A stretch of DNA of 64,000 nt from a virus: positions 180,406 through 244,405 of the IMG/VR virus record IMGVR_UViG_3300044712_002679; one strand, 5' to 3'. The notes below the pieces were generated by a model, which worked only from the letters and a program-made list of their open reading frames with translations, ran no database searches and was not told the origin of the DNA. This document shows positions 11,191-49,658 of this stretch, piece after piece. The translations under genes and the position numbers were made by a program. Each line of letters begins with the position of its first letter. Positions within the stretch are counted from its first letter, which is position 1.

Positions 11191-11193
11191 CAA

Positions 11194-11504: not shown

Positions 11505-11519
11505 TTTAATATATAATGT

Positions 11520-12664: not shown

Positions 12665-12682
12665 CAAATATATTTAAATGAT

Positions 12683-12756: not shown

Positions 12757-12854
12757 CAAAAGTTCAGAAACAGGAAGATATTTTGTTACTGATATTAAAA
12801 GTGATAGAAAATAAATTCGATAATTTGATGACCCGCTTAATTTTTTAACAAATT

Positions 12855-24943: not shown

Positions 24944-25015
24944 TGCTTTTTAATGTAATGGTTAGCATATAACACTTTGACTGTTAGAGTCTTGGTTCGA
25001 ATCCAAGGGAGGCAA
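24944..25015 (+). tRNA. tRNA-Gln-like (TTG) with a G:U-rich acceptor
   Basis: Acceptor TGCTTTT/GGAGGCA, D-arm ATGTAATGGTTAGCAT, anticodon stem TAACA/TGTTA with loop CTTTGAC, T-arm CTTGGTTCGAATCCAAG. Confidence 0.5.
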
Positions 25016-25027
25016 CAAAACAAAAAT

Positions 25028-25098
25028 AGCCTTGTAGCATAATGAAGTGCTCCATCCTTTGAAGATGTAAGGTATCGGTTCAAGTCCGATCAAGGCTT
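25028..25098 (+). tRNA. tRNA-Gln (TTG)
   Basis: Perfect acceptor AGCCTTG/CAAGGCT, D-arm GCATAATGAAGTGC, anticodon stem CATC/GATG with loop CTTTGAA, T-arm ATCGGTTCAAGTCCGAT. Confidence 0.75.
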
Positions 25099-25099
25099 C

Positions 25100-25171
25100 A
25101 ATCTTTTGGTGTAATGGTCAGCATATAATTTTCTGAAATTTAAGATATTGGTTCGATTCCAATAAAGATTA
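25100..25171 (+). tRNA. tRNA-Gln (CTG), probable
   Basis: Perfect acceptor AATCTTT/AAAGATT, D-arm GTGTAATGGTCAGCATAT, anticodon loop TTCTGAA, T-arm ATTGGTTCGATTCCAAT. Confidence 0.55.
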
Positions 25172-25231
25172 CAAATGTCCATAGTGGTATTTTTTCGATA
25201 TTTTTTATTTATATATAAATAAAAAAACACT

Positions 25232-26077
25232 ATGGACAAAATTTTAAAACAATTTGGAAAAGATAAACTTATAGAAGCAGTAAACGAATCTAATTCTTTT
25301 GTTGAAGCAACATCTTTTTTAGGATTAGATGCAAAAAATACTAACATTAAAAAGAATGTGGAAAGATCAATTAAAAGATTAGGATTATCCACAGAACACT
25401 TTGAAAGTGTCAAACGAGTAAAAGATGCTAAAACTAGATACACAAAAGAAAAATTAGAATCGCTTGTTATAAAATGTAAAAATTATAAAGAAATTTTAAT
25501 TGAATTGGATGTTTTACCTATTGATAATAATTATAAAAAATTAAAATCTGAATTATATCGTTATAAAATTGATTTTTCACATTTAAAAAATCAAAAAATA
25601 TCAACAATTAAAGTAAATTGGGCAAAAGAAGTTTTGGAACCAATATTTAAAAAATCATTATCCCAAAAAGAAGTTTTAGAAAAATTAGGATTAAGATCTG
25701 CTGGTGGTAATTTTAATACTTTACGAAAATATATAAAATTATATAATTTAGATAGTTCTCATTTTATTAAAAATTATGATTCTATGTGCAATGTTAGTAA
25801 AAATAAAAAAATTCCTTTAGATCAAATTTTAGTTGAAAATTCGACATATGATAGAACACATCTTAAAGATAGATTATATAAAGAAGGATTAAAAGAAAGA
25901 AAATGTGAAATGTGTGAACAAGATGAAAATTGGCATGGTAAACGTATGAGTTTGATTATTGATCACATAAATGGTATTCATAATGACAATAGATTAGAAA
26001 ATTTAAGAATTATTTGTCCTAATTGTAATGCAACATTAGACACACATTGTGGAAAAAATAATAAAAAAGCCAGATAA
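25232..26077 (+). CDS. HNH homing endonuclease, paralog of 7789-8494
   Basis: CEMCEQDENWHGKRMSLIIDHINGIHNDNRLENLRIICPNCNATLDTHCGKN. Shares ILVENSTY..LK.RLYKEGLKERKCE with the paralog. Immediately downstream of the tRNA-Gln genes. Confidence 0.7.
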   Translation: MDKILKQFGKDKLIEAVNESNSFVEATSFLGLDAKNTNIKKNVERSIKRLGLSTEHFESVKRVKDAKTRYTKEKLESLVIKCKNYKEILIELDVLPIDNNYKKLKSELYRYKIDFSHLKNQKISTIKVNWAKEVLEPIFKKSLSQKEVLEKLGLRSAGGNFNTLRKYIKLYNLDSSHFIKNYDSMCNVSKNKKIPLDQILVENSTYDRTHLKDRLYKEGLKERKCEMCEQDENWHGKRMSLIIDHINGIHNDNRLENLRIICPNCNATLDTHCGKNNKKAR

Positions 26078-27478: not shown

Positions 27479-28084
27479 ATGAAAACAAAATTTGCAGAAT
27501 TTATAATTGAATCAAAAACGTATAATTTATATAAAGGGGTCACTAGATTGGACGAAATATTAAAAAGTGGTAAACTTAAATATGATAATAATTGGGAAAC
27601 AACTATAAGACAAAATATGGGTATAATGGGTATTGGAATATCAGCTACTCGTGTTTTTTCAACAGCATTAAAATATGGTGAAGCAATTATAGAATTTGAT
27701 ATCGAAAAATTGAGTGCCAAATATAGAATTATACCATTTTCGGAAAATCCAGATTATTTTATTTGGTATAAAAAACATTTTTCACCACCAGACAGTTATA
27801 ATTATGTAAAAACTGGAATTAGTGATAATCAATATAATGATATTTTTTGGGATTATAAAACAAATAAATATGATCCGGATTTTAATATTGCAGAAGAAAT
27901 TATTTTAACAAAAGAAATACCTATAAAATATTTCAAAAAGGTGTATCTCAACACAGATAATATACTATTACTTAAATTATTAAAATCTAAAAATATTCCA
28001 TATGAAATTGTTGATAATGAACATTTATCTGAAATAAGACATAAAAATAAGAAGAAAAATAAAAAAAATTTATTAGATTTTTGA
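27479..28084 (+). CDS. Hypothetical protein
   Basis: 201-aa ORF. Confidence 0.5.
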   Translation: MKTKFAEFIIESKTYNLYKGVTRLDEILKSGKLKYDNNWETTIRQNMGIMGIGISATRVFSTALKYGEAIIEFDIEKLSAKYRIIPFSENPDYFIWYKKHFSPPDSYNYVKTGISDNQYNDIFWDYKTNKYDPDFNIAEEIILTKEIPIKYFKKVYLNTDNILLLKLLKSKNIPYEIVDNEHLSEIRHKNKKKNKKNLLDF

Positions 28085-34171: not shown

Positions 34172-34489
34172 TTATAAAATATTATATTTTTTTGCATTTA
34201 TTTTTATATCAAACGGTTTCCAAAAATCAGATGAAACTATTATTTTTGTAGTTACACAATTACCATATGTTGATTTAATATCAATATCATAATCTTTAAA
34301 AGTTTCTAATATTTTTTTTAAATTTTCTTTATATATAACACGATATTTAAGATTAATACTAAATGAATCCACATATTCATCAACAATAGTAATTATCATA
34401 GCATCATCAAATATTTCATATAAATATGGTAAATATTTATCAGTATCTTTATCTCTTCTTTTAACTTCAAATGTTTTTACGTATTTCAT
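34172..34489 (-). CDS. Cassette-array member 6 (MKYVKTFEV ... INAKKYNIL)
   Basis: 105 aa with the conserved termini. Confidence 0.55.
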   Translation of the reverse strand: MKYVKTFEVKRRDKDTDKYLPYLYEIFDDAMIITIVDEYVDSFSINLKYRVIYKENLKKILETFKDYDIDIKSTYGNCVTTKIIVSSDFWKPFDIKINAKKYNIL

Positions 34490-35694
34490 AATATATTATA
34501 TTTTTTTGCTTTGGTTTTTATTTCATATTGTTTTCTATCTTCAGATGTTATTATTAAATTTCCCATATTAGTCCATTCTGGATTATTTATAATTGAATCG
34601 TGTGCAAATCTCCAATTCCACCCCACCAATGAATTAAATCCAAAATTTGTTATTAATATTTCATCATTTAAATTCATATGATTGTCGATCCCAGATTGTT
34701 TCATTGTCATTCGTCGTTGATTTGGTATATTTAATTTATCCATTGCAACATCAAAATCAGAGTATAATATTTTCCAATATTTTTTTGTGTTAATGTTGGT
34801 TTCGTTACTTTCAAATTTTTTGGTTTCATATTTTTCTTTCAATTTTATAAATAAGTCATACATTCTCTTATCGTAATGTTTTTTAAATCTTGTTGTTTTT
34901 CCATAAAAATCGAAATTTCTTAATGATAACATTGTAAAAAATTCTTTAAATGTATTAAACGAATTTATTTGATTCCATTTAATATCACCATTTTTTAATT
35001 TTATTATTAATTTATCAACTGCTGCCAAAAAAAATGCATTATATTCTGTTGTTAAATTTGCATAAACTTTATCATATTCATCTATAAAATTTGGATCCAA
35101 TTTGGCATTATATTCAGGATCATTAGCCAATCCAGCATCACAAATATCATATAGTTTTGATTTACTACAAGCTTTTATTAATTCTTTAAATAAATCGAAT
35201 TTCATATCATCTGTGGCATGAATTAATTCGTGAAATATTATCTGTTTTTCTTTATTTTCTAATTTATATCTTGCAATATCTTTTTTAATTTTTTGCAATT
35301 CTTGATTGTTGTTACTTGTAAATATTTTTCTGATTAATTCATAAAATTTATCTAAAGGTATAGTTAATATATATTTATTGCCATTTTTTTCATATGATCC
35401 AGCGATTTTATCCGCTTTACCTTTAACATTACTATCATATTTTTTTATTTTGATAATAAATTTGAAATTTTTAAGGGGAATTTCAAGTGTTTTTGGATAA
35501 AATTCAAAATTTTCATATGTTGTTGAAAAAATATAATCAATATAATGATTTTTGTTGGTTAATATATTATCAGCAATTGTTACAAAATGATTTCGAATAA
35601 GAATCATAATATCGTTCATCATATCACGAATTTCTTCTCTTTTTTCTAAATCTTTACGTTCTATTATAAATTTATATTTCTTTAAATATTTCAT
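34486..35694 (-). CDS. Cassette-array member 5: HExxH zincin-like metallopeptidase candidate (MKYLKKYKFIIER ... KAKKYNIL)
   Basis: 402 aa with IFHELIHATDD. ATGA overlap with both neighbours. Confidence 0.55.
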   Translation of the reverse strand: MKYLKKYKFIIERKDLEKREEIRDMMNDIMILIRNHFVTIADNILTNKNHYIDYIFSTTYENFEFYPKTLEIPLKNFKFIIKIKKYDSNVKGKADKIAGSYEKNGNKYILTIPLDKFYELIRKIFTSNNNQELQKIKKDIARYKLENKEKQIIFHELIHATDDMKFDLFKELIKACSKSKLYDICDAGLANDPEYNAKLDPNFIDEYDKVYANLTTEYNAFFLAAVDKLIIKLKNGDIKWNQINSFNTFKEFFTMLSLRNFDFYGKTTRFKKHYDKRMYDLFIKLKEKYETKKFESNETNINTKKYWKILYSDFDVAMDKLNIPNQRRMTMKQSGIDNHMNLNDEILITNFGFNSLVGWNWRFAHDSIINNPEWTNMGNLIITSEDRKQYEIKTKAKKYNIL

Positions 35695-35996
35695 AGAATA
35701 TTATATTTTTTTCCTTTTTTGATTATTGCTTTATTTTTTATATAATCAAAATATTCATCAGGTGACATCCATTTTGGTGCATAATTTTTTTCACTACAAT
35801 CATCGCATACCCATTCAGGTGGTTGCATACCACCTCTTGCTGTTGGTGTTAATTTATAACTATCACAGTTAGAACAAATATAAAATCTATCACCAAACCC
35901 ATTATCATATAAATAATCATTAAAATTATTTTTAGGTTGATCTTGTTTGGTTAAATAATTACCTTTATGTTTTTCAAAATTTTTTAAATATTTCAT
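35691..35996 (-). CDS. Cassette-array member 4: Zn-ribbon protein (MKYLKNFEKH ... KKGKKYNIL)
   Basis: 101 aa with CSNCDS...CDDCSEK. Confidence 0.5.
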   Translation of the reverse strand: MKYLKNFEKHKGNYLTKQDQPKNNFNDYLYDNGFGDRFYICSNCDSYKLTPTARGGMQPPEWVCDDCSEKNYAPKWMSPDEYFDYIKNKAIIKKGKKYNIL

Positions 35997-36576
35997 AGAA
36001 TATTATATTTTTTTCCTTTTTTCCAAATGTTATATTTTTCAATATCTTTTGGTGTGATTTCAATTTCACCCATATATGTATATTTTTGTGATGATAAAAA
36101 ATCTTCATCAGTAGTATATCCCCAAGGATTATATTATCGAAATCCGTATTTTCTTTTCTAATCTTTCTAATATTTGAAAATTCGTGTGACCAATTACCAG
36201 ATAATAATTCATAAGATTTACATCCTCTAGTATAAATCATCTTTGTTATTTCATCTAATGTTGCTTTAATTCTATCATTTCTTTGCCATTTAGTATTTCC
36301 GAAATCATCATCTAATATTTGTATATATGTTTCAATATAATAATCATTATTATATGAAAAAACAATAAATATTCTATTCTTACCAACCGAAATTATTAAT
36401 GTGTTTTTATTTTTCTTTATTGTTAAAATAAAGTCTTTTTTATATTTTATTTGTTGCCATTGTGCATTACCTGAAATTGAATAATCTCGTTGGACTTGTT
36501 TCATAACAACGAATGGTACACTTAAATTGATAAGTGATGTTTTTTCAAATAATTTATATGTTTTCAAAAATTTCAT
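35974..36576 (-). CDS. Cassette-array member 3 (MKFLKTYKLFEK...). The C-terminus is frame-shifted relative to family members at a poly-A tract
   Basis: 200 aa. Ends ...FGKKEKNIIFYEIFKKF instead of ...KKYNIL, and reads 23 nt into the next gene. Confidence 0.5.
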   Translation of the reverse strand: MKFLKTYKLFEKTSLINLSVPFVVMKQVQRDYSISGNAQWQQIKYKKDFILTIKKNKNTLIISVGKNRIFIVFSYNNDYYIETYIQILDDDFGNTKWQRNDRIKATLDEITKMIYTRGCKSYELLSGNWSHEFSNIRKIRKENTDFDNIILGDILLMKIFYHHKNIHIWVKLKSHQKILKNITFGKKEKNIIFYEIFKKF

Positions 36577-36974
36577 AATATGTTATATTTAGTTGCTTTT
36601 TTGTTGATTAAAAATTTTTCATATTCATCTTCTGATAAATGTTTTTTTAGATAATTATCTAATTCTATTTCATTTGGTTTTTCTAACTTTCTTTTTGGAA
36701 GTATTGCTTCATATTTTTCGACACCCCTTAATATATGATTTGGAAATAGTCTTGGTACATTTTCAAAAAATTGAACCGTAAATTTATAATCATCATAATT
36801 TTTATTATTTATATCAATTATTTTTCCAAATACACCCTTTTTGCAAAATTCAATAGTTGGTGGATCCAAAAGTTCATTATAATTAATTTTAATATAATCA
36901 CCAATGTTAAAATCGTCTTCATCTTTATCGTTATCGTATTTTTCAAATAATTTATATGTTTTCAAAAATTTCAT
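36573..36974 (-). CDS. Cassette-array member 2 (MKFLKTYKLFEKYDND ... KKATKYNIL)
   Basis: 133 aa. Confidence 0.5.
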   Translation of the reverse strand: MKFLKTYKLFEKYDNDKDEDDFNIGDYIKINYNELLDPPTIEFCKKGVFGKIIDINNKNYDDYKFTVQFFENVPRLFPNHILRGVEKYEAILPKRKLEKPNEIELDNYLKKHLSEDEYEKFLINKKATKYNIL

Positions 36975-37318
36975 AATATATTATATTTAGCTGCTTTTTT
37001 GTTGATTAAAAATTTTTTATATTCTTCTTTAGATAAATGTTTTTTTAAATAATAATCTAATTCTATTTCATTTGGGGGTTCTAATTCATCTAAATTTACA
37101 CTAAAAATATATGAACCATTACCTAATGGGACTTTTTTAAAAAATTTAATATCATATGGATATTCTGTTCCAACTTTTATATCTTCTATTTTACCTATTT
37201 CAGATTTAAAAAAAATAAGATGGGATTGATCAAAATAATCTCCAACAATTTTAACATAGTCACCCACATTAAATTCTTGATTATTTTCAAATAATTTATA
37301 TGTTTTCAAAAATTTCAT
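36971..37318 (-). CDS. Cassette-array member 1 (MKFLKTYKLFENNQEF ... KKAAKYNIL)
   Basis: 115 aa. Its C-terminal 40 aa are nearly identical to member 2. Confidence 0.5.
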   Translation of the reverse strand: MKFLKTYKLFENNQEFNVGDYVKIVGDYFDQSHLIFFKSEIGKIEDIKVGTEYPYDIKFFKKVPLGNGSYIFSVNLDELEPPNEIELDYYLKKHLSKEEYKKFLINKKAAKYNIL

Positions 37319-37442
37319 ATTTTATAATTTATATATATAAAAAAAGAAATTTTTTTTTAAGAAAAAACAGTTTTAAATATTAATATATAAAAAAGTAAAA
37401 TTTTATTTTAATATATAAACATAAAAAATAAATAAATTAATC

Positions 37443-37700
37443 ATGAGAAGAAAACAAAACATACAAGATGCTTTCCATAGTGTTATTCCAGTTGGTACTG
37501 CTGGTCCATGGAGTGTAGGATATTCAGGACATACTGATGATTCAGCAGATTTTGCTGCACCTGATTTTATAATTACAGGCATTAGGAATATTACCGATCA
37601 ACATGTACCAGGAACATCAGATCATATTATGAATGATGTTTATATTGATTATTCTGGTTCAACAATATCTGGAACAACTAGTATATATTCATATATTTAA
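37443..37700 (+). CDS. Small hypothetical protein
   Basis: 85 aa. Confidence 0.3.
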   Translation: MRRKQNIQDAFHSVIPVGTAGPWSVGYSGHTDDSADFAAPDFIITGIRNITDQHVPGTSDHIMNDVYIDYSGSTISGTTSIYSYI

Positions 37701-37850: not shown

Positions 37851-40800
37851 ATGTTATGGACAATATTACTGATTAAAAAAAATAATAATGGTTGGTATAT
37901 TAACTACATTGAAAACAAGTTAATTAATCAAATAAACAAATTGAAATTAGAAAAGTTTGTTGAAGTTCTTGTATTTGAACCCAATTTACAAATTTTTGCT
38001 AATTATATAAGTGTTGTAGATAAAGTTGAAATATCTGATAATTTTGTGGAAATAATTTACAATAAATTAAAAAATTGTAAAAAAGATTGCATTAGATTAA
38101 CCGCCATAAGTTATATGGATAATGTTCCAATAGAAATAGTCTTACCAATATCAAAATTAAATCCAATAAAAATAGATAATATATTCGAATTACAAGACAT
38201 TAATTATTATATTAATAGTGAAAATCTTTCAAGTATAGTTAAAACGATAGACACAATAAACATTCCAGTTATTTATTATGAAGATTTGAATAAAATACCA
38301 TTCAGTATCATTATATCAGCATATAAATCACAAAAATATATTGAAGAATGTTTAGATTCAATTGAAAATCAAACATACTTTAAAGATAATGATAATTATG
38401 AAATATTAGTTGGTGTTGATGGTTGCCAGGACACCTTAGATAAATTACAAGAAATCAAGGATAAATACAGAAATCTTCATATTTATATGATGACTGAAAA
38501 TAAAGGCACATATATCTGTTGTAATACATTGATTGATTTAGTGAAAAATGAAAATGTTATTAGGTTTGATTCTGATGATGTTATGACACCTAATTTTATT
38601 AGAGAAGTTGTTAGAAATATTAATGATAACGATATTATGATATTGGGTTCATTGGATTTGACAAATGGTATTGTTGGCACAAAATTTTTATTAACGGAAG
38701 GAATCATTTATTTTAGAAAAAGTGTAATGGATAATATTGCTGGGGGATATCAACCTTGGATATGTTCGGCTGACACAGAATTAATCAAAAGATTAATGAA
38801 TAAAGTAAAAATTATGCAATTAAAAAAAGCATTATTTCACAGAAGATTGCATAGTGAAAGTTTAACACAGAAAGATGGTACACGATATAGATCAGAACTC
38901 AGGGAAGGTTATAAAAAATTGATTAAACCATATTATAAAGATAATGAAATTAAAATTGAACGGGTTGTTAATATAATATTAGAAGAAGAAAAATTAGAAG
39001 AAAAATTAGAAGAAAAATTAGAAGAAAAATTAGAAGAAAAATTAGATATAATTTTAGAAAATAACATTCCAAAGATTCCAAAAAAGATGTTTTTTTATTG
39101 GAGTGGTGGCAAATTATCATGGATGAGATATATGACAATATATTCATTTAGAAAATTTAATCCTGATTGGGAAATAACATTATGTTTATCTAATAACAAA
39201 AGTACTTATAATAATTGGAAACATAATAAACAAGATTTTATTGAATATAATGGTGATGATTATTTTAAAAAATTAAAAAAATTAAATATCAATATTAAAG
39301 ATGTCAAATTTTCAGATGAATTATCAAATAATTCATGTTTTAAAAAATTATCACCTATTCACGAAAGTGATTTATATAGATATTATGAACTGTATAAATC
39401 TGGTGGATTTTATTGTGATAGTGATGTTATATTTTTTAGGTCTATTGATAAATTTTACAATGAAATTATTTCTGGTCAATATGATACTGTTGTTCACGAA
39501 TATTATAATTCTGAATCAGACAAATATCAAACAATAGGGTTTTTGGGTTCTTCTATAAATAACCAATATTATAAAGATTTATTTAATTATGCGGTCCATC
39601 ATATTTTAAAAAACAACATATCCAATGATGATTATCAATCATTGGGTGTCAATTTAATTTATAATTATTTTAATAAATTACCAAAATTATTACCAAATAT
39701 TAAAGAAAAATATAAAGATTTAAAATTTATGAATATACCAAACAATTTAATATACAAATATGATTGGAAGTGTATAGAAAATTGTTTTGAAATTGGTAAA
39801 ACAATAAACGATTTTGATATATATTCTATTGGTTATCATTGGTATGGTGGACATAAAATATCACAAAAATATAATAATATTTTAAATGAAAAAAATTATA
39901 AAAAATATAATACGACAATAAGTAATATTGCTAAATTCATTTATGATAAAAAAGAAAAAATATTACCAACAATTTCTATTATTATGACTTATTATAATAG
40001 AAAAACATTATTATACAATACGTTAAAAAGTATAAATACATCATCTGTAAAAAATATAGAAGTTATTGTTGTTGATGATGGTAGTTCGGAAGATCAAAGA
40101 ATAGAAGAATATAAAAATGAATTTTCATTTTTAAAAATAATTAGATTAAATCCTGAAAATAAATGGTATCTTAATCCATGTATACCATTTAATATTGGAA
40201 TAAGATATGCAAGTTCGGATAAAATAATATTACAGAATTCGGAATGTGTATATGTTGATGATATATTAAAATATGTTAATGATAATTTAGATGATTTTAA
40301 ATATATATCATTTTCAACATATTCTATTGATGAAGAATCCAATAATTTAATATCTAAAAATTTAAAAAATGACACATTAAAAGAATTTCTTAAAAAATTT
40401 CCACAACAAACAATAATGGGCAATAGACCAATTGGGTGGTATAATCATTCACAATATAGATCGACATATTATCATTTTTGTGCTGCAATAACTAAGAAAA
40501 ATTTAGATTTAATTGGTGGTTTTGATGAAAGATATGCTAATGGCATTGGATTTGATGATGATGATTTTATAGAAAAAATAAAAAATTTGAATTTAAATAT
40601 GTTGATAGTGGATAATTATTCTGTTATCCATCAGTGGCATGATAGTTATTATTATAATATTCCAAATTTTATGAATTATCATAATAAAAATAAAAATATA
40701 TTTAATTCAATATATAAAAATAAGAAAATATCAGTAGCAATATGCTATTATAATCGTAAGCAACATTTAATTAATACATTAATGAGTATGACTAAAAGTT

Positions 40801-43109
40801 TATATAAAAATTTTGAAGTTATCGTTGTTGATGATTGTAGTGATGATGAACATAGAATCGAATATTTAGAAGAAAAATTTAATTTTTTGAAAGTTGTTCG
40901 TATAAATAAACAAGAAAAAAAACATATTAATCCTTGTTATCCACTTAATTTAGCAATAAGTAAAACTGTTGGTGATATAATCATATTACAAAATCCAGAA
41001 TGTTATCATTATGATGATATATTTTCACAAGTTATAAATAAAATCGAAAAAAATAAATATTTAGCTTTCTCAACAGTAAATATTGATATTGTTGATAACC
41101 TATCTAAAATAAATTATAATAATTATGAATCTGAAATAAAAAATGTAATAAATATTGATATAAATGAACCTAATGATTCTAAAAAGTTTTGGTACTGTCA
41201 TGAAAAATTTAGACCAGAAGCATATAATTTTTGTACAGCAATAACAAAAAATGATTTAATTCAATTAAATGGATTTGATGAAAGATATGCAGATGGTATA
41301 GAAAGAGATGATGTTGAATTTTTAACAAGAATAAAAAGGATGTTAATGACTATATCATTTGAACCATCTATTGTAATACACCAAAGTCATACACAATTTT
41401 ATTATAATGATAAAAAAACAAAAGAATTAAAACAAAAAAATCATGAATTATTTGCAAAAACGACAGCTATTGAAAAAAACATAAAAGTAAATACAAATAA
41501 AAATATTATAAATATGACAAGCAAAAAAATTGGAATTTTAGTAGTAAATTTAAATAATTTAGATTTTACAAAAAAATGTATAAATGATTTAAAAAAACAA
41601 ACAAATCAAAATTTTATAATTTATTTAGTTGATCAAAATTCTGATGAAATAGGTACAATTGAATATCTAAATGAATGTAAAAATGATTATAACATAAAGA
41701 TAATTCAAAATAATGATAATATACCACTCAATTATATTTGGAATAATTTTAAAAATATTTGTAATTGTGAATATTTATGTTTTTTAAATAATGATGTTGA
41801 ATTATCTAATATGTATGTCGATGATACAATTAAAGTATTAGATAAAGAATCATCAGTAGGTATTGTTTTACATATTACTAACAATCCAGAATATATTAAA
41901 TCTAGTATACATTTAAAATATGATATTTTTGATGAACCATTACGTCAAGGTTGGGATTTCACTATTAGACGACATATAATGCCAAATATACCATTAGGTT
42001 TAAAACTTTTTTATGGTGATGATTATATATTTTCAAAAGTTAATTCATTAGGTTATAAATATGCTGTTGTATATAGTTCACCAATAATTCACTATTTGAG
42101 TCAAACTTGTAAAAAATTAAAAAATCTCGATAATTATGCGGATGAAGATGAGATAGTATTTCAAAAAATAATGAATGATGAAAAACTAAAACCGATTTTA
42201 TATTCATCTTGTGGAAAAATTGAAAATAGACAAATTATAGGATCAGGATTATGTAAACTAAAACCAAATAAAAATATGATGGTAATTGATGAAATTAAAA
42301 AAATATTAGTAGTAATTGTAAATTATAATTCAGATCAACTTAATCACTTAAATGCAGTAATTGATGAATTTAATAAATTTGATAAAAATAAATATAAAAT
42401 TGATATTTTTGTACATAGTAATATATCAATTAATAGAAATGATGTAACTACAATAATACATAATATGCCAGAAAAAGGTTGGAATTGGCTTCCTTGGGAA
42501 TGTCGAAAAACAATTTATAAAAATAAAGATTATTATGATTTATATTTATATACAGAAAATGACCATCTATATAAAGAATCACATATAGATTCATTTTTTA
42601 AAATAACAAATATTTTACCAGAAAATTTAATTGCTGGATTTATTCAATATGAAGATTTTCCAGATAAGAATAAAGATAAATTTTATCCAGCTTATCATGC
42701 AAATTATGATTGGGATTTTGATTCTATACAAATAATTGATAATTATATTGTAGCAAAATTTAAAAATCAACATCATGCTGGTTTTTTATTAACTAATAAT
42801 CAATTAAATAAAGTTATAAATGTAATGAAAGATGATTTCTTAATTGATATGGATCGTGGAAAATATATTGATGAATTACCTGGATATGATTCACCAAAAG
42901 TTAGATGTTGTACTGATGTTTATACACATTGTGGTATGAATAAAGTTATACCAATATCACATTTTAATGATTTCTTAATCCACCATTTACCTAATAAATA
43001 TATAAATTTAAATTGTATTAATGGTCATTGGATTTCAATAGAAAATAAAGAAAATCCAAATTATGATAAAATGTCAGATGCAATTAAAAAAATGTTAAAA
43101 ATTAAATGA
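37851..43109 (+). CDS. Giant multi-domain glycosyltransferase (1752 aa): GT2, GT32-like (Och1/DXD), then GT2 x3, plus a C-terminal domain
   Basis: FSIIISAYKSQKYIEECLDSIENQ...VGVDGC. IPKKMFFYWSGGKLSW...YCDSDVIFF. ISIIMTYYNRKT...VIVVDDGS. ISVAICYYNRKQ...VIVVDDCSDD. IGILVVNLNNLDF...IIYLVDQNSDE. Also an (EEKL)x5 linker. Confidence 0.75.
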   Translation: MLWTILLIKKNNNGWYINYIENKLINQINKLKLEKFVEVLVFEPNLQIFANYISVVDKVEISDNFVEIIYNKLKNCKKDCIRLTAISYMDNVPIEIVLPISKLNPIKIDNIFELQDINYYINSENLSSIVKTIDTINIPVIYYEDLNKIPFSIIISAYKSQKYIEECLDSIENQTYFKDNDNYEILVGVDGCQDTLDKLQEIKDKYRNLHIYMMTENKGTYICCNTLIDLVKNENVIRFDSDDVMTPNFIREVVRNINDNDIMILGSLDLTNGIVGTKFLLTEGIIYFRKSVMDNIAGGYQPWICSADTELIKRLMNKVKIMQLKKALFHRRLHSESLTQKDGTRYRSELREGYKKLIKPYYKDNEIKIERVVNIILEEEKLEEKLEEKLEEKLEEKLDIILENNIPKIPKKMFFYWSGGKLSWMRYMTIYSFRKFNPDWEITLCLSNNKSTYNNWKHNKQDFIEYNGDDYFKKLKKLNINIKDVKFSDELSNNSCFKKLSPIHESDLYRYYELYKSGGFYCDSDVIFFRSIDKFYNEIISGQYDTVVHEYYNSESDKYQTIGFLGSSINNQYYKDLFNYAVHHILKNNISNDDYQSLGVNLIYNYFNKLPKLLPNIKEKYKDLKFMNIPNNLIYKYDWKCIENCFEIGKTINDFDIYSIGYHWYGGHKISQKYNNILNEKNYKKYNTTISNIAKFIYDKKEKILPTISIIMTYYNRKTLLYNTLKSINTSSVKNIEVIVVDDGSSEDQRIEEYKNEFSFLKIIRLNPENKWYLNPCIPFNIGIRYASSDKIILQNSECVYVDDILKYVNDNLDDFKYISFSTYSIDEESNNLISKNLKNDTLKEFLKKFPQQTIMGNRPIGWYNHSQYRSTYYHFCAAITKKNLDLIGGFDERYANGIGFDDDDFIEKIKNLNLNMLIVDNYSVIHQWHDSYYYNIPNFMNYHNKNKNIFNSIYKNKKISVAICYYNRKQHLINTLMSMTKSLYKNFEVIVVDDCSDDEHRIEYLEEKFNFLKVVRINKQEKKHINPCYPLNLAISKTVGDIIILQNPECYHYDDIFSQVINKIEKNKYLAFSTVNIDIVDNLSKINYNNYESEIKNVINIDINEPNDSKKFWYCHEKFRPEAYNFCTAITKNDLIQLNGFDERYADGIERDDVEFLTRIKRMLMTISFEPSIVIHQSHTQFYYNDKKTKELKQKNHELFAKTTAIEKNIKVNTNKNIINMTSKKIGILVVNLNNLDFTKKCINDLKKQTNQNFIIYLVDQNSDEIGTIEYLNECKNDYNIKIIQNNDNIPLNYIWNNFKNICNCEYLCFLNNDVELSNMYVDDTIKVLDKESSVGIVLHITNNPEYIKSSIHLKYDIFDEPLRQGWDFTIRRHIMPNIPLGLKLFYGDDYIFSKVNSLGYKYAVVYSSPIIHYLSQTCKKLKNLDNYADEDEIVFQKIMNDEKLKPILYSSCGKIENRQIIGSGLCKLKPNKNMMVIDEIKKILVVIVNYNSDQLNHLNAVIDEFNKFDKNKYKIDIFVHSNISINRNDVTTIIHNMPEKGWNWLPWECRKTIYKNKDYYDLYLYTENDHLYKESHIDSFFKITNILPENLIAGFIQYEDFPDKNKDKFYPAYHANYDWDFDSIQIIDNYIVAKFKNQHHAGFLLTNNQLNKVINVMKDDFLIDMDRGKYIDELPGYDSPKVRCCTDVYTHCGMNKVIPISHFNDFLIHHLPNKYINLNCINGHWISIENKENPNYDKMSDAIKKMLKIK
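38984..39049. repeat. 12-nt tandem repeat x5 (gaagaaaaatta), encoding (EEKL)5
   Basis: Direct reading. Confidence 0.8.
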
Positions 43110-44167
43110 AAATATTAACAATAGTTGGAACTAGACCCGAATTAATTAGATTGAGTGTTATAATTGAAAAATTAGATCAATTAGTTGAACACATTTTGGT
43201 ATATACAAATCAAAATTATGATTATAATTTGAGTGGTAGATTTTTTGATGATTTAAAAATAAGAAAGCCTAATTATTATTTTTCAAAAGAAGCTAAAACA
43301 TTTCCAGATTTTTTAAGTAATGCTATATTAGAATTTGAAAAAATTTTAAATGATGAAAAACCAAATAAAATACTTATTCTTGGTGATACAAATTCAGGTT
43401 TATTATCAATAATTGCTGAACGATATAAAATTCCAATATATCATATGGAAGCAGGAAATCGGTGTTATGACAGTAGGTTACCAGAAGAAGCAAATAGAAA
43501 AATTATTGATAGTGTTTCTACATACAATTTACCATATACAGAAAATAGTAAACAAAATTTATTATCAGAGGGTTATCATAAAAATTATGTATTTAAAACT
43601 GGAAATCCAATTTATGAAGTATTAAATAAATTTATTATTGAAATACATAATAGTAAAATACTATCAGAATTAAATCTTGAAAAATATGTTTTAGTCACTG
43701 TACATAGAACCGAAAATGTTGATAATGAGGATTCGTTACGAAGCATAATTTATGCTATAAATACTATTTCCGAACAGTTCACAGTTGTACTTTCTCTACA
43801 TCCACGAACAAAAAATAAAATTGAAGAATTTGGCATTAATTTTAATAATAATGTAATTGTTTCTAATCCTTTTGGATTTTTTGATTTTATAAAATTAGAA
43901 AAAAATGCCAAATGTGTCATAAGTGATTCTGGAACAGTTCAGGAAGAGGTATGTATATTTGGTGTACCATCTTTAACAATTAGAGAAAGTACTGAAAGAC
44001 AAGAAACAATTGAATGTGGATCAAATATTCTATGTGGTACAAAAACACAAAATATAATAAATGCTTTTAATATTGCAATTAAGAGAAATAATAAATGGAA
44101 TGTTCCAGAAGAATATTTGAATAAAAATGTTTCAGATACAATAATTAATATATTATTAGGAAAATAA
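43106..44167 (+). CDS. UDP-N-acetylglucosamine (or UDP-L-RhaNAc) 2-epimerase, WecB/WbvD family
   Basis: MKILTIVGTRPELIRLSVII... matches the WecB N-terminus MKVLTVFGTRPEAIK. 353 aa. Confidence 0.75.
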   Translation: MKILTIVGTRPELIRLSVIIEKLDQLVEHILVYTNQNYDYNLSGRFFDDLKIRKPNYYFSKEAKTFPDFLSNAILEFEKILNDEKPNKILILGDTNSGLLSIIAERYKIPIYHMEAGNRCYDSRLPEEANRKIIDSVSTYNLPYTENSKQNLLSEGYHKNYVFKTGNPIYEVLNKFIIEIHNSKILSELNLEKYVLVTVHRTENVDNEDSLRSIIYAINTISEQFTVVLSLHPRTKNKIEEFGINFNNNVIVSNPFGFFDFIKLEKNAKCVISDSGTVQEEVCIFGVPSLTIRESTERQETIECGSNILCGTKTQNIINAFNIAIKRNNKWNVPEEYLNKNVSDTIINILLGK

Positions 44168-44176
44168 AAATAAAAT

Positions 44177-44821
44177 ATGAAAGAATTAAAAGAACAAATG
44201 ACAAATTTTTGGGAAGAACAGCATAAAAATGAATATAAGCCATGTTTAAGTGGAAGTGAATATGAACAAACAATTAATTGGTTAAAAATCAATGATATTA
44301 TAAAGCCAAATTTAAATATATTGGAAGTTGGTGTTGGATTGGGTTATGTTACAAAAAAACTTTTTGAAAATAAATTAAATGTGAGTTCAGTTGATATATC
44401 AGAAATTGGATTAGAACGAGTAAAACCATATTGTGAAAAAACATATAATATAAATAATATTTCTGAATTACCATCAAATTATTTTGATATTATAATATGC
44501 AATCTTGTTGTTCAGCATATTTCAACAGAAATTCTTATACAAGAATTAAAAGAATTTATGAGATCATTAAAAAAAGATGGAGTTTTTTCAATACAGTTTG
44601 TTTCATCTGATAATTTTGATGATAATGGAATTAACGCATCATTTGATGATTCACAAGCAGGAAGATTATGTCGAACACCAGAAGTCATGAAAACCATATT
44701 TAAAAAATTTGGTGGAAAATGCGAAATTGTAAATGAATCACCACTCACATCTGCTTGGTTAACACGAAGTTATGTTTTCCATGTAACAAAAATACAAAAT
44801 ACAATATATGCAAAATACTAA
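44177..44821 (+). CDS. Class I SAM-dependent methyltransferase
   Basis: Motif I ILEVGVGLGYVTKKL. Confidence 0.6.
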   Translation: MKELKEQMTNFWEEQHKNEYKPCLSGSEYEQTINWLKINDIIKPNLNILEVGVGLGYVTKKLFENKLNVSSVDISEIGLERVKPYCEKTYNINNISELPSNYFDIIICNLVVQHISTEILIQELKEFMRSLKKDGVFSIQFVSSDNFDDNGINASFDDSQAGRLCRTPEVMKTIFKKFGGKCEIVNESPLTSAWLTRSYVFHVTKIQNTIYAKY

Positions 44822-45362
44822 TTTTAATGATATTAGCCAATTAATATCAAAATATGTAAATTTGGATATAGATAAACTTTTAGTTTTAGGTTGTGGTGAA
44901 TTAAGATATGAATTAAATTTAAATGCAAATCACATATTGGGTATAGATTGGTCTGATGAACAATTAGATAAAGCAAAAAATAAATCTAATGTAATTGTAA
45001 TAAAATATGATATTACTGAAATTAAAAACATCCTTCGTGATAAAAGTTTTGATAGTGTTGTATTAATTGATGTTTTAGAACATCTCGAAAAAAAAGATGC
45101 ATTAAATATATTAATAGATTTAGAAAAAATTGTTAAAGATCAAATAATATTATTTGTACCAATTCAAGAAAAAATAGAAAATTTAGAAAAATTTATAAAA
45201 TATCAAAAAGATCGTAAATTAAATAATCTTTCTATGGGTTATCATTTATCAAATTGGACACCTCAAGAATTAGAATTATTGGGTTTTATTGGTGAGTATT
45301 CAGAAAAATATCACATAGAAAAAAATATGGGTGCAATATTCTGTGTAAAAACAATATTATAA
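44808..45362 (+). CDS. SAM-dependent methyltransferase-like protein
   Basis: LVLGCGELRYELN and VVLIDVLEHL motifs. Confidence 0.5.
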   Translation: MQNTNFNDISQLISKYVNLDIDKLLVLGCGELRYELNLNANHILGIDWSDEQLDKAKNKSNVIVIKYDITEIKNILRDKSFDSVVLIDVLEHLEKKDALNILIDLEKIVKDQIILFVPIQEKIENLEKFIKYQKDRKLNNLSMGYHLSNWTPQELELLGFIGEYSEKYHIEKNMGAIFCVKTIL

Positions 45363-45364
45363 GT

Positions 45365-45928
45365 ATGGATTATCTAAAAATATATGAAGGAATTTTTAAT
45401 GAATATGAAAATTATGATAACCATATTGGTTATATTGATAGATATAATTATATAATAAAAGAAATATCTAAATATTCATATAAAAAAATAATAGATATTT
45501 CATCTGGTCGTGGTGTTTTAATTAAATTATTGCAAAATAAATTTTCAGATATTAAAATATGCACTACTGATATTAAAAAATTCAATGATATAGATGTTGA
45601 TTTTATAAAATTAGATTTAACAAATAAAATCGAATATAATAATATAATAGATAAATATGATTTATTGTTGTGTTTAGATGTATTAGAGCACATTGAAGAA
45701 GAATATATAGATGATGTATTAAATTTCTTATCATCAATATCAGAAAATTTTTGTTTTTCAATTGCAAATCATTCTGATATAAAAAATAATTATGAATTAC
45801 ATTTAATTCAGAAAAACAAAAAATGGTGGAATACAAAATTAAAAAAATATTATAAAATAATAAAAACATTTAATAAATATGATAACAAATTATATTGTTA
45901 TATTTTAACAAAAAAAAATAAATTATGA
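45365..45928 (+). CDS. SAM-dependent methyltransferase-like protein
   Basis: IIDISSGRGVLIKLL and LLLCLDVLEHI motifs. Confidence 0.5.
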   Translation: MDYLKIYEGIFNEYENYDNHIGYIDRYNYIIKEISKYSYKKIIDISSGRGVLIKLLQNKFSDIKICTTDIKKFNDIDVDFIKLDLTNKIEYNNIIDKYDLLLCLDVLEHIEEEYIDDVLNFLSSISENFCFSIANHSDIKNNYELHLIQKNKKWWNTKLKKYYKIIKTFNKYDNKLYCYILTKKNKL

Positions 45929-46644
45929 AAATACTTATATTAGGACATAATGGATTATTGGGAAATACTGTTTTAAAATATTTTAAATCAAAAAAATATG
46001 AAATAATAATAACAGATTTAAGGTGGCCTGATAATGATTTTAAATCATTTATATCAGAACAAAAAGTTGATTATATTATCAATTGTATTGGTGTTATACC
46101 ACAAAAGAAGCCAAATGATGAACTTTATGATTTAGTTAATTATCAACTACCTGTTTGGTTAGATAGTTTAAATATTAAAGTTATACACCCAGATACTGAT
46201 GAACCTGATGATAATCCATATGGTTTAGCAAAAAGAAAAGCACGGGAAGATATAAATAAAAATACTAAAATACTAAAAGCATCTATTATTGGATTTGAAA
46301 AAAATACACAATTTTCATTTTTAGAATGGTTTTTACATTCTGAAAAATCTGTTAGTGGATATACAAATCAATATTGGAATGGTATTACAACATTAGAATG
46401 GGCAGAATGTGCAGAAGAATTAATGAATAATTGGGATAAATTTAATAATGTTACAATATTATCTAATCCAGATTGTTTATCTAAGTATGAAATATTATTG
46501 ATGTTCAAAAAAGTATTTAATAAAAATATTGAAATTATACCAACTGAAGCAACATTAAGTAAAAATAATTGTATGAAAGCTGATTATGTATTAGAAAAAT
46601 TGGAAGCACAATTATATGAAATGAAAAAATTTTATGAAAGATAA
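45925..46644 (+). CDS. RmlD/WbvR-like NAD(P)-dependent sugar 4-reductase (short)
   Basis: MKILILGHNGLLGNTVLKYF Rossmann N-terminus, typical of dTDP-4-dehydrorhamnose-reductase-like enzymes. Confidence 0.55.
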   Translation: MKILILGHNGLLGNTVLKYFKSKKYEIIITDLRWPDNDFKSFISEQKVDYIINCIGVIPQKKPNDELYDLVNYQLPVWLDSLNIKVIHPDTDEPDDNPYGLAKRKAREDINKNTKILKASIIGFEKNTQFSFLEWFLHSEKSVSGYTNQYWNGITTLEWAECAEELMNNWDKFNNVTILSNPDCLSKYEILLMFKKVFNKNIEIIPTEATLSKNNCMKADYVLEKLEAQLYEMKKFYER

Positions 46645-47575
46645 ACGAATATTTATAACTGGTGGTGCCGGGTATTTAGGTACTAATATAATTAAACGAT
46701 ATTATAATGATAATGAAATATCAGTTTATTCAAGAGATGAAGTTAAACATTATTATCTTAAAAAACAATACCCAAAAGTCAATTGTATAATTGGTGATGT
46801 TCGTAATTTTGATTTATTAAGCAGATCATCAAAAAATCATAATATTGGAATATTTGCAGCATCCCTTAAACAAATTGGTGCTGTTGATCAAAATCCAGAG
46901 GAAAGCGTTCGTGTAATAATTGATGGTGCAATAAATTCAAGAAGATGTGCAGAAGAAAACAAATTTGAATCTGCGTGTTTTATATCATCAGACAAATCTA
47001 GAGCAGCAACCACTTTATATGGTGCAATGAAATTTGTTGCTGGTGAATTGTTTATAGTTAATGCGGATAGAAGTTCAACTATGCTATCATCTGCAATATA
47101 TGGTAATGTTACTAATTCTACTGGTAGTATAATTCCTTTAATTTGGGATAGTATTAATAAAAAATATGAATTAATATTATATTCAGATCAAATGACAAGA
47201 TTTATGTTAGATGTTGAAGATGCAATTGATGTTATTGAAAATGCACTACAAGTTAATGGATATAATGTTATACCAAATGTTAAAAGTATTAAAATAAAAG
47301 ACTTATTTGATGTATATCAAGAAAAATTTGGATTAAAATATAAATTGGGTGAACCTAGAATATCAGAAAAAATTCATGAAATTATGATCGCCAAAGAAGA
47401 ATTACCAAGAACATACTATTCAAAAGATAAAAATATGTATTTTATGCATTATCAAAATATTCAAAAAGATAGTATGATTGGAAATTTTATAAATAATGAG
47501 TATAATTCGGGTGATTATACCTATTCAAAAGAAGAATTAATACGATTATTAGAAAAAAATAATTATTATAAATGA
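46634..47575 (+). CDS. UDP-GlcNAc 4,6-dehydratase (5-epimerase), PseB/CapD/WbvB family
   Basis: RIFITGGAGYLG...ISVYSRDEVKHYYL...IIGDVRNFDLL and YGAMKFVAGELF parallel H. pylori PseB (ILITGGTGSFG...IIVYSRDELKQ...FIGDVRD, YGATK). Confidence 0.75.
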   Translation: MKDKRIFITGGAGYLGTNIIKRYYNDNEISVYSRDEVKHYYLKKQYPKVNCIIGDVRNFDLLSRSSKNHNIGIFAASLKQIGAVDQNPEESVRVIIDGAINSRRCAEENKFESACFISSDKSRAATTLYGAMKFVAGELFIVNADRSSTMLSSAIYGNVTNSTGSIIPLIWDSINKKYELILYSDQMTRFMLDVEDAIDVIENALQVNGYNVIPNVKSIKIKDLFDVYQEKFGLKYKLGEPRISEKIHEIMIAKEELPRTYYSKDKNMYFMHYQNIQKDSMIGNFINNEYNSGDYTYSKEELIRLLEKNNYYK

Positions 47576-48150
47576 AATTATTAATAAAAATATACATTCG
47601 AGAAATGAATCCTTATGATTTATTACAAATTTTAGGTGCATTAGAATCTGTTGTCTGTGAAAAAGATAATACCAAAATTGTTATTATGACAAATGATTCA
47701 ACATTTGATTTTGACCATTATGAATATTATTATTCATCCGATACAAATATCCAAAAAATGATAAATTATAAACTAGATGAATTGGAATGGGATATCATTC
47801 TACCAATATTTAGGCCATTTATCGCAACCCGTAATTTTGATTCAATTATAAAAAAATTATATGAAGAATATTTTAAAAATTTAGATGGTGTATTATGGGT
47901 AAACGATAATGTACAACATGAAGTTGCAACATTTCCAATCATTGGTAGAAAATATTATGAAAAATTTGGATATGTTTTCAATTCAATTTATAATAAAAAG
48001 AATTTCGAAGAAGAATTTACGGAAATTTTAAAACTTAATAAAAAATATCATTATTATGATAAAACTACAATGTTCAAAATATTACCATTAAAGTTGGATG
48101 ATGATAATATTTTTGATTTTAGAAAAAAAATAAATTTTTGTTATTTATAA
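47572..48150 (+). CDS. Hypothetical protein
   Basis: 192-aa ORF. Confidence 0.4.
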   Translation: MKLLIKIYIREMNPYDLLQILGALESVVCEKDNTKIVIMTNDSTFDFDHYEYYYSSDTNIQKMINYKLDELEWDIILPIFRPFIATRNFDSIIKKLYEEYFKNLDGVLWVNDNVQHEVATFPIIGRKYYEKFGYVFNSIYNKKNFEEEFTEILKLNKKYHYYDKTTMFKILPLKLDDDNIFDFRKKINFCYL

Positions 48151-48209
48151 TATTCAAAAAATTATAATTAGTTTTACCAATATTTAGAATTACAGAAAAT
48201 ATAGAAATA

Positions 48210-49508
48210 TCAAAATTGATAAATATCACACATTCTAACTTTTTTCCTAAAAACATTATAATGATTTACATCATTTAATGAAACCCGATAATTCATTTTC
48301 GAATTTTTTATTAAATCAAATAATTCTTTCCAATTATCAGGTATATCATTAACCGTTTCCTTCCATTGGTGTATTAATGATTGTTTTAACCAAACTGTTG
48401 GATAAAATTTATTTGATTTTTTAATTATTATTTCATAACCCCTACGGGCAATTTCCATACTTGAATTGACAGGATCAACTTTATCATACATACAATTACC
48501 AATAAAAGAACTATATGCTGGATTGATCTTATATAATTTTTGACCATTGATATTACATCGTTTTTGTAAATTATCTATGAATTTATTTCTTTTCCATAAA
48601 TTCTTGGTCAACCTATTAAATGCTTTACCTTTACTATTATTTGGTTTAAAATCCAAATCTTCAATGAATATAAATTTACATTTATAATGCTTTGATATTT
48701 CTGATATCCGTTTACTTACATTTAAGATTTCATAATCAAGTTTGTTGTTTAAATATTTAACTTCCTTTGAATCACTTGATTTATTTGTTTTCTTAATCTT
48801 GTTTATGATTTCACTGAATTCAAAATCATAACTGTCAATCAATTCCATATCTTTATTGCAAACCGATATACCAATATTGGTTGGGTTTAAATCAATACCA
48901 ATAAACCTATTTTCTTTTAAATCAGCTACTTCATTTTTAATTTCATCGAAACTGATATTAATTTCAGATTCATTTAATATCACAGTAAATTTATGTTTCT
49001 TTTGTTGGCATAAATCCTGGATTTCAAGCAATTGTTTTAATTGATTTTTTGATGGATTAACATTTAAATCATAATGATGATCTTTATCGTATTTGAATGT
49101 GATAACGTTATTTAAAATATCTAAATTAAAATTCCTGTTACCATTTCTTGCTGTTTCACCTTGAAGACATAACGGAATTAAACGTTTTGCTGTAAATTGT
49201 TCTTTTGTTATTTTTTCCTTACATCTTTGATTGAAGTTATATTTTCCACCAAAAATTGATCTATGGTTGTTAACTTTGTCCTTTTCATATAACCTGTTTG
49301 TAAAGTCAATACAATCATTGATTAATCGACCTTTAATCAAGTTTACACCATTTAAATTTGGTATTAATGAATAGATTTCTTTTTTTGTTAACCCATCATA
49401 TAAACGATTATAACCGTATCTATAAACACACGAATATTGCTTCCTCATTTTTAATAAAAAATAATGATATTCTTTGGTGGAATTATATTTTAATTTAATC
49501 GTTATCAT
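48210..49508 (-). mobile_element. tnpB: IS200/IS605-family TnpB (OrfB) RNA-guided nuclease-like gene. Solo, with no adjacent tnpA
   Basis: 432 aa. RuvC-I IGIDLNPTNIG and a C-terminal RuvC-III/Zn-finger region CNINGQKLYKINPAYSSFIGNCMYDK. Confidence 0.75.
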
Positions 49509-49658
49509 TGAAGTATATATAAAAAAATCAAAGTCTTTTTTATAAACTTTATTGATATATTTTTATATGTTATGATAACATATTTGATTTTAGGAAAAAT
49601 AAATTTTTGTTTGAATGAAATAGATTATTACGATTTAAGAAAAATAAAACTTTGATAT

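Follow-up and report, generated by a model that had tools for sequence, protein, structure and literature searches.

Cassette genes with tagged termini form a hyperplastic array in a huge T4-like phage

The diverse, non-essential and highly basic internal proteins of bacteriophage T4 carry a capsid-targeting sequence (CTS), the ten-residue peptide MKTYQEFIAE, which is cleaved once. Giant phages such as phiKZ and SPN3US have expanded paralogous families of ejection and inner-body proteins, the N-terminal propeptides of which are removed after a glutamate by an S80 prohead protease; the bodies within each of these families are homologous, and virion mass spectrometry has documented the members. 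A different kind of system is formed by the promoter-early stem-loop (PeSL) cassettes of T4-type phages, in which short conserved flanking sequences shuffle ORFans by insertion, deletion and replacement among related phages, homology patches of less than 50 bp being enough for the recombination (PMC2839356). Here we describe an array of six minus-strand genes at positions 34172-37318 of a 64,000-nucleotide stretch of the IMG/VR virus record IMGVR_UViG_3300044712_002679 (positions 180,406 to 244,405 of the record; this whole stretch is called the window in the following). The products of these genes share a short peptide at the N-terminus (N-tag) and another at the C-terminus (C-tag), which enclose mostly unrelated bodies (payloads), and the six genes are members of a family that is defined by its tags, very large and without annotation, and that occurs in huge T4-like phages. 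An earlier note on this DNA, made from its letters alone, had proposed them as candidate capsid-targeted and injected effectors.

Like IPI, IPII and IPIII, which are internal proteins of T4, the tagged products are diverse small proteins with a peptide at the extreme N-terminus that starts with Met-Lys and ends with Glu, and like the T4 internal-protein loci, the tagged loci are hyperplastic and show payload turnover. The tagged family is far larger, however, with 64 payload clusters sampled and arrays of up to eight or nine genes, and it is known here from genes alone, whereas the T4 internal proteins are encapsidated. The same distinction applies to the head-internal families of phiKZ and SPN3US, and in contrast to their homologous bodies, the bodies of the tagged proteins are unrelated and only the termini are common.

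The window has a G+C content of 22% and encodes 25 tRNA genes, HNH endonucleases, a sugar-nucleotide/glycosyltransferase cluster and a single-stranded DNA-binding protein of the T4 gp32 type; the protein annotation of these 64 kb contains no head genes. The closest gp32 matches in a phage collection come from uncultured huge phages of 634-735 kb (42-48% identity), and the gp32 proteins of at least nine IMG/VR contigs with tagged genes are 73-88% identical to that of the window. T4-like TerL, portal and sheath genes are present on tag-bearing loci. The source of the window is a huge T4-like phage of about 500 kb, its proteins being encoded on a JGI contig of 501,337 bp.

The array and the family to which it belongs

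The six open reading frames (ORFs) of the array, here called cassettes 1 to 6 (Table 1), encode 115, 133, 200, 101, 402 and 105 residues. All of them start with MK[FY][LV]K, and five of the six end with KKYNIL. At four junctions the called frames overlap by the 4 nucleotides (nt) ATGA. The junction between cassettes 3 and 4, the fifth, reads GKKYNIL-stop/ATGA too, but as it lies in a frame different from that of the body of cassette 3, the latter is considered a frameshifted deletion derivative. The junction pattern AARTAYAAYATHYTATGAAR occurs five times and the N-terminal DNA pattern six times in the window, with 0.00 occurrences expected from shuffled sequences in either case. Among the first three array starts 35 nt are identical, and cassettes 1 and 2 are paralogues with 57% identity. 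The tandem array with shared ends and ATGA coupling, as described in the earlier note, is thus borne out by the ORF calls and by the pattern counts. The number of six genes stands as a number of ORFs, with one pseudogene (cassette 3) and one product of two modules (cassette 5) among them. That the middles are unrelated does not hold for cassettes 1 and 2, nor for the last ~100 residues of cassette 5, which are related to cassette 6 and to a 126-residue type found in relatives; the linker between the two modules of cassette 5 (residues 292-301) retains the tag remnant KKFES.

In total, the window contains 9-12 family members. From the dispersed copies that the earlier note had listed, the genes at 11520, 17095 and 51443 indeed carry both tags and the gene at 17472 the N-tag only, the tag is degenerate at 14614 and 12855, and the motif does not fit the weak examples at 3896, 4484, 54334 and 55163. 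The strict tag is present on none of the window proteins with a clear Pfam assignment as enzyme or replication protein, a point on which the earlier note had wished its motif to be checked. Searches with Pfam and PHROGs of ten family members from the window gave nothing significant, and no paper was retrieved when the full text of the literature was searched with the tag strings.

When IMG/VR was scanned with the N-tag DNA pattern, more than 118 loci were obtained on contigs of 200-675 kb with ~22-30% G+C, where many of the matches are in tandem. The ORFs at these loci typically encode 90-200 residues, start with MK[YH][LI]K.[FY]E, end with K[FY]N[LI] directly before the stop codon and often overlap by ATGA; one related contig carries an array of eight to nine tagged genes. 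Samples in which the clade occurs come from bog, lake hypolimnion and digester (for example JGI 3300029998, 3300037067 and 3300035208). The exact junction DNA pattern was discarded as a family probe, its 72 IMG/VR loci being essentially all chance matches in A/T-rich DNA. From the loci of the N-tag scan, 149 non-redundant doubly tagged ORFs were obtained, which after trimming of the tags fall into 64 payload clusters (blastp, 1e-4). When 86 doubly tagged proteins were compared with Pfam, ankyrin repeats (ANK) were recognized in four and leucine-rich repeats (LRR) in two, and the rest remained unrecognized. Altogether, at least 64 unrelated kinds of payload are found between the tags on A/T-rich contigs that reach about 700 kb, with SH3-like, ANK, LRR, zinc-ribbon and HExxH types among them.

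Cassettes 1 and 2 belong to an SH3-like subfamily, termed "GDY". Its profile found 131 proteins in a word-indexed search of 5.8 billion proteins, and an exhaustive search resulted in 2,846 representative clusters (50%-identity clusters) at E<=1e-3, or 1,839 at 1e-10, with nearly all matches spanning the profile from residue 1 to the last residue. None of the 131 or 2,846 matches bears a useful name. These numbers are decisive for an alternative that the earlier note had itself raised, namely that the shared ends are only the trace of a recent tandem duplication of the junction at this locus. The DNA-identical first three starts and the recent paralogy of cassettes 1 and 2 would fit such an event. 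The same tags, however, occur on dispersed genes of the window, on orthologous arrays in other assemblies and on thousands of tagged proteins with unrelated payloads across many contigs. Since thousands of homologues exist in other genomes, a recent duplication as the sole explanation is refuted, and it retains next to no probability.

Tags conserved as peptides and cassettes exchanged at the junctions

An alignment of 149 proteins gives the N-tag as M1 (100%), K2 (97%), [YHF]3, [LI]4, K5 (98%), any residue at position 6, [FY]7 (99%) and E8 (92%), and past E8 the information falls from ~3.9 to ~0.7-1 bit per position. The C-tag reads [AST]-[NKD]-K-[FY]-N-[LI]-stop and is preceded by a weaker amphipathic pattern. 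In the lineage of the window, the variants are an 11-residue N-tag, MKFLKTYKLFE, and the C-tag KYNIL. Orthologues of the array proteins in two related loci, L074 and L075, are only 39-49% identical overall, but the 11 tag residues are kept, and the codon differences within the tag are synonymous (TTG/TTA, TTA/CTA/TTG, TTT/TTC). Family-wide substitutions in the tag are conservative (Y/H/F, L/I and F/Y), and the G-containing codon of E8 is retained in 92% despite a genomic G+C content of 22%. Of 176 doubly tagged ORFs, 87 overlap the following ORF by ATGA, and 64 (36%), most of them with a TAA stop codon, are followed by no tagged gene, so that the C-tag is not just the initiation region of the next gene, an explanation that is weakened by this fraction.

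The predicted structures point in the same direction. AlphaFold2 modelled cassette 1 from an alignment of 112 sequences with a pLDDT of 82.5; the core of residues 13-110 is confident (~90), and pLDDT falls below 50 at residues 1-12 and at the last ~5 residues (five-residue block average). The core consists of an SH3-like barrel and a helical hairpin, and the best Foldseek matches are PsaE chains and YorP of the Bacillus subtilis prophage SPbeta (TM-score 0.55-0.81, target-normalised; E~3e-3). The payload of cassettes 1 and 2 is accordingly predicted to be a small five-stranded SH3-like beta-barrel. In the model of the 402-residue protein (pLDDT 74.4), residues 1-12, the C-terminal end and the linker are likewise disordered. 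A structural clasp formed by pairing of the two tags was considered and ruled out, as AlphaFold2 leaves both of them disordered beside a confident core. Because the most conserved residues are predicted to lie outside the folds, the tags look like linear recognition motifs. The payload of cassette 5 is a putative zincin metallopeptidase and that of cassette 4 a candidate zinc ribbon, both calls being based on their motifs; a library search with cassette 4 gave weak zinc-finger matches only.

A relative that bears on the history of the array is L197, a 10.6-kb JGI contig with a syntenic array in the order ANK (187 residues), 236, ANK (151), 126, 281 (HExxH) and 105, followed by the same genes as in the window. 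Compared with L197, the window lacks ~1 kb, comprising the 3' third of the 236-residue gene, an ANK cassette and most of the 126-residue cassette, and this loss resulted in the pseudogene cassette 3, in which an out-of-frame fusion links the 5' two-thirds of a gene of the 236-residue type with the 3' terminus of a cassette of the 126-residue type. In a blastn comparison, window positions 36625-36135 correspond to L197 515-1002 and positions 36082-35980 to L197 2014-2113; the KKYNIL end of cassette 3 is found in another frame at about 35993-36130, and intact homologues of its parts exist in L075 and L197. The window in turn has in addition the zinc-ribbon cassette 4, which is not present in the L197 array, where only its junctions align, and the HExxH gene of the window is fused to a second module of the 126/105 type. 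Cassette 6 has its orthologue at L197 2939-3256. In L074, one ORF consists of two fused cassettes with a degenerate internal tag. Whole cassettes, fusions and a deletion thus distinguish the syntenic arrays of L197, L075 and L074, and the exchange of payloads between conserved junctions in related phages, which the earlier note had anticipated, is observed: the conserved junctions are where cassettes have been gained or lost, fused or deleted. The array contig was deposited (L197/L198; JGI 3300037067 and 3300035208; NCBI M0Q97_10845) in a bin of "Candidatus Dojkabacteria bacterium", which either reflects wrong binning of a phage fragment or gives a clue to the host.

This turnover resembles that of the PeSL cassettes, as short conserved flanks are combined with insertion, deletion and replacement of ORFans. 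Unlike in PeSL, the conserved sequence is coding and comprises the last ~6 and the first ~8-11 codons of neighbouring genes with their 4-nt overlap; the array junctions have no intergenic space, stem-loop or sigma-70-type promoter and are conserved as protein. Sigma-70-like sites were not found above the shuffled background, and the sole terminator-like site falls within a gene, on the other strand. The junctions are at the same time ATGA translational-coupling sites and homology patches of 35-146 nt, the longest being a direct repeat inside the array, the two copies of which are 92% identical, spaced by 398 nt and cover two junctions. This 146-nt repeat is long enough for homologous recombination.

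One could therefore argue that the junction is mainly a nucleic-acid element, i.e. a recombination module with an optimised ATGA coupling and initiation region, and that the peptides are by-products. The identical starts and the repeat inside the array, the cassette indels that end at junctions, the frequent ATGA overlaps between a C-tag and the next start, and the precedent of T4-type phages, which shuffle ORFans via short flanks, would all be in line with this. It does not explain why distant relatives preserve the amino acids, with changes that are synonymous or conservative, why the G-containing E8 codon persists in A/T-rich genomes, why more than a third of the C-tags precede no tagged gene and why stand-alone members retain both tags; moreover, peptide and recombination roles can coexist. 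We regard the by-product explanation as unlikely, and accept recombination, for which the junction DNA also acts as homology patch, as a secondary function. The pattern of substitutions indicates that both tags are selected as peptides, and we consider it quite probable that they are protein-level recognition motifs for one common partner. The locus is in any case a compact device for gene shuffling, in which a coding stop-start junction at once couples translation, offers a patch of homology and encodes the peptide tag.

The prohead and other candidate partners

In the overall best explanation, which we hold tentatively, each product would begin with a short, disordered peptide, followed by a folded payload unrelated to the others and by a last helix, and would end with another disordered peptide, K-[FY]-N-[LI](L)-COOH; by means of the two tags, all payloads would be passed to a single partner encoded by the phage. 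The scaffolding core of the prohead is the leading candidate for this partner, and on it the N-tag would act like the T4 CTS. A gp21-type protease of the clade might, or might not, clip the N-tag behind the terminal Glu, and the payloads, i.e. the ANK, LRR and SH3-like protein-binding modules and the putative metallopeptidase, would be packaged and co-injected as effectors. That the partner is the prohead and the outcome packaging and injection seems to us possible, if rather doubtful, and with similar reserve we view the N- and C-peptides as a bipartite address code that would load dozens of unrelated effectors per genome into the capsid. Such a code would be an expanded and mechanistically distinct relative of the T4 CTS, with a coding junction that doubles as a recombination site for payload swapping.

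The genomic setting is suited for such a role. On the contig IMGVR_UViG_3300009149_000200 (L079/L201), tagged genes flank the portal gene on both sides, and the order in L201 is a gp20-like portal, a tagged gene, a Peptidase_S80/S77 protease-scaffold gene and Gp23. The protease-scaffold gene (L201 16066-18450) encodes 794 residues with matches to Peptidase_S80 (26.4 bits, cut-off 23.4) and Peptidase_S77 (23.1 bits, cut-off 27), in which a protease domain of the gp21/S80 type is fused to a scaffold-like region with ~14 tandem [YF]-I-A-E-[NH]-[LV]-D repeats. The Peptidase_S80 match, which passes the Pfam cut-off, is also a likeness to phiKZ and SPN3US. The [YF]IAE repeats look like self-cleavage sites, and because the scaffold carries them, the protease of the clade probably keeps a T4-like I-x-E specificity. 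Like T4, the clade hence has a scaffold, a protease and a gp23 head module, and since this module lies on tag-bearing contigs, the absence of a gp21-like prohead protease or of a T4-like head, which the earlier note had named as fatal to its proposal, does not apply to the clade. Two large homing-endonuclease-like ORFs sit between the portal and the protease-scaffold gene of L201.

The likeness of the N-tag to the CTS, as claimed in the earlier note, extends to its position, its length of 8-11 residues, the MK start, the Glu end, the abrupt drop in conservation and the predicted disorder. By eye, the two peptides have M-K, an aromatic/aliphatic pair and the terminal Glu in common; the N-tag has no significant sequence match to the CTS, the peptide being too short for statistics. 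The (L/I)xE motif that the earlier note had seen at the N-termini is present in cassettes 1-3 (LFE) and 5 (IIE) and not in cassettes 4 (NFE) and 6 (TFE). Within the family it ends at positions 6-14 in 39% of the N-tag ORFs against 19% of controls; occurring in a minority of the members, it is not a feature of the family.

Several observations weigh against the prohead as partner. Only 21% of the tags have L or I at the position that matches the scaffold site: residue 6, which would be P3 for a cleavage after E8, is T in 38%, K in 22% and L or I in 21%. The C-tag has no counterpart in T4. Unlike the highly basic T4 internal proteins, the payloads are mostly acidic, with a median tag-trimmed pI of 5.6, 57% below 6 and 15% above 8.5. 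The positions of the tagged genes around the head genes vary, and the idea of a fixed slot in the head module was dropped for this reason. In a search for the portal on the source contig, this contig was not among the best 80 of more than 397 relatives, and among 50,697 phage records no match was found to 20 kb of the window by megablast, or to the 402-residue protein or a typical family member by tblastn. Moreover, the starts of two other window proteins, at 27479 and 17951, are closer to the T4 CTS and to the scaffold [YF]IAE site than the array tag, and judged from these starts they may be better candidates for packaged proteins of the CTS type than the array. Finally, an upstream motif was considered as a possible sign of late expression. 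TATATA[AT]A is found 10-30 nt upstream of many starts (e.g. 3881, 13721, 25210, 27467, 37335, 37823, 49521 and 51933) and precedes varied gene classes including the portal and protease genes of L201, and it therefore gives no expression timing, so that this argument had to be abandoned; from its distribution, it is likely the main promoter element of the clade.

As an alternative to the prohead, the tags could address another partner, such as a degron receptor or adaptor for timed proteolysis, a phage chaperone or hub, or a host complex, and the payloads would then be cytoplasmic host-takeover or anti-defence proteins. The evidence of disordered, protein-level terminal motifs is the same for this possibility as for the prohead, and mostly acidic payloads with ANK, LRR and SH3-like protein-binding domains would suit cytoplasmic effectors. 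Hydrophobic motifs at a free C-terminus that follows a helix are typically seen in docking peptides, and the poor (L/I)xE fit together with the unexplained C-tag weakens the capsid model. No candidate for such a partner was found, however, no known motif library matched, and the alternative has no concrete precedent, whereas the capsid model has the T4-like setting and an MK…Glu N-tag of CTS length. We are no less hesitant about this alternative by itself, and a non-capsid partner and a prohead partner appear about equally likely to us.

A further thought concerns the chemistry of the tags. The chainmail of phage HK97 is formed by Lys-Asn isopeptide bonds, and by analogy the nearly invariant Lys and Glu in the N-tag, together with Lys-x-Asn in the C-tag, could support a head-to-tail joining of neighbouring products, which we regard as highly improbable.

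Both partners would have consequences beyond this locus. If the tags are a packaging and delivery code, delivered cargo would be recognisable by sequence alone in uncultured huge phages, a large arsenal of injected effectors would be revealed, and a portable two-peptide tag would become available for loading foreign proteins into large capsids, comparable to the T4 CTS. If another partner is addressed, thousands of unannotated proteins would share one handling signal, and its receptor would give all tagged proteins a common step in the infection cycle.

Feature positions and further observations in the window

The positions of the cassettes, the junction repeat, the dispersed members and the two proteins with CTS-like starts are collected in Table 1.

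Table 1. Array cassettes, junction repeat and related features in the window.
Feature	Positions	Strand	Description
Cassette 1	36971-37318	-	115 residues; N-tag MKFLKTYKLFE; predicted SH3-like barrel and helical hairpin; C-tag KYNIL
Cassette 2	36573-36974	-	133 residues; same tags as its paralogue cassette 1; ATGA overlap at each end
Cassette 3	35974-36576	-	200 residues as called; deletion-fusion pseudogene
Cassette 4	35691-35996	-	101 residues; CxxC…CxxC zinc-ribbon-like payload; both tags
Cassette 5	34486-35694	-	402 residues; ~281-residue HExxH payload fused to a second module of ~100 residues that bears the C-tag
Cassette 6	34172-34489	-	105 residues; last of the array; KKYNIL kept; TAA stop; no tagged gene downstream
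Junction direct repeat, copy 1	36541-36686	.	146 nt
Junction direct repeat, copy 2	36939-37084	.	146 nt
A/T-rich leader	37319-37345	-	TATATATAA motif 17-21 nt upstream of cassette 1
Dispersed member	11520-12146	+	208 residues; shortened N-tag MIKLFEEY; end KKYNII
Dispersed member	17095-17475	+	126 residues; MKHLKIFE…KKYNI; ATGA overlap with 17472-17927
Dispersed member	17472-17927	+	151 residues; N-tag MKHLKIFE only
Dispersed member	51443-51880	-	145 residues; MNFLKSFK…KKYNIL; stand-alone; convergent with a glycosyltransferase gene
Protein with degenerate N-tag	12855-13709	-	284 residues; MKHINIFE; AP2-like segment by eye
CTS-like protein	27479-28084	+	start MKTKFAEFIIES; pI 9.1; no Pfam match
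CTS-like protein	17951-18493	-	start MKTNFIEFIKDD; pI 6.7; no Pfam match

Two of the dispersed members, at 11520 and 17095, are preceded by a motif related to the upstream element, TTAATATATAATGT, which ends directly at the ATG and hints at near-leaderless transcripts. The protein with the degenerate N-tag at 12855-13709 contains five tandem 11-residue repeats (KSEKIEKPKMV) and has no Pfam match. The adjacent plus-strand ORFs 54334-55152 and 55163-55732 have a common start, MITKLNEF. The second of these has an internal, C-tag-like KSNKFNL at about residue 70, followed by a domain that starts with IELYHGTSSD, and may be another fusion of a tag module; Pfam gave a weak, non-significant match to a Scabin-like ADP-ribosyltransferase at residues 14-40, outside that domain. 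The plus-strand ORF 4484-4987 (167 residues) starts with MKKTYQTIIEKGNGNCMQAAL, and its KTYQ…IIE start recalls the T4 CTS. It also contains a GNGNC segment that resembles a cysteine-peptidase active site by eye, and it has no Pfam match.

Upstream of the array, the segment 37443-37700 on the plus strand looks G+C-rich against its surroundings and contains an 85-residue ORF rich in G, S, T, P and D, the product of which is identical in L074 (2652-2909). Considered as an RNA, positions 37403-37700 gave no Rfam match, and the z-scores of folding were -0.6 and -2.0. A 432-residue ORF at 48210-49508 on the minus strand by eye resembles TnpB, with the motifs GIDLN and NPAYSS and the acidic segment IEDLD. 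The Pfam scan of this analysis found nothing in it, and its copy in L074 (1234-2532) has a precomputed match to PF27229 (SSO2105_N). In L074 the 432-residue ORF lies between the 85-residue ORF and a glycosyltransferase gene, and in the window it is found ~10 kb away and inverted; it is probably mobile. The surrounding block for glycan synthesis (37851-51448) encodes a glycosyltransferase-like multi-domain protein of 1,752 residues, a UDP-GlcNAc 2-epimerase, a UDP-glucose/GDP-mannose dehydrogenase-like protein and a GT2 enzyme, and part of it is common to L074.

The tRNA genes form clusters at 6205-12757 and 24944-25172, and several of the tRNAs have an unusual length of 84-97 nt or odd anticodon loops; HNH endonuclease ORFs (7790-8494 and 25232-26077) lie inside or beside these clusters. 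The 236-residue ORF at 1214-1924 on the plus strand matches only the middle of IMP dehydrogenase/GMP reductase. At its start lies the C-terminal part of an intein splicing domain, pointing to a gene that is split, or disrupted by an intein, and continues from the upstream ORF 205-1230.

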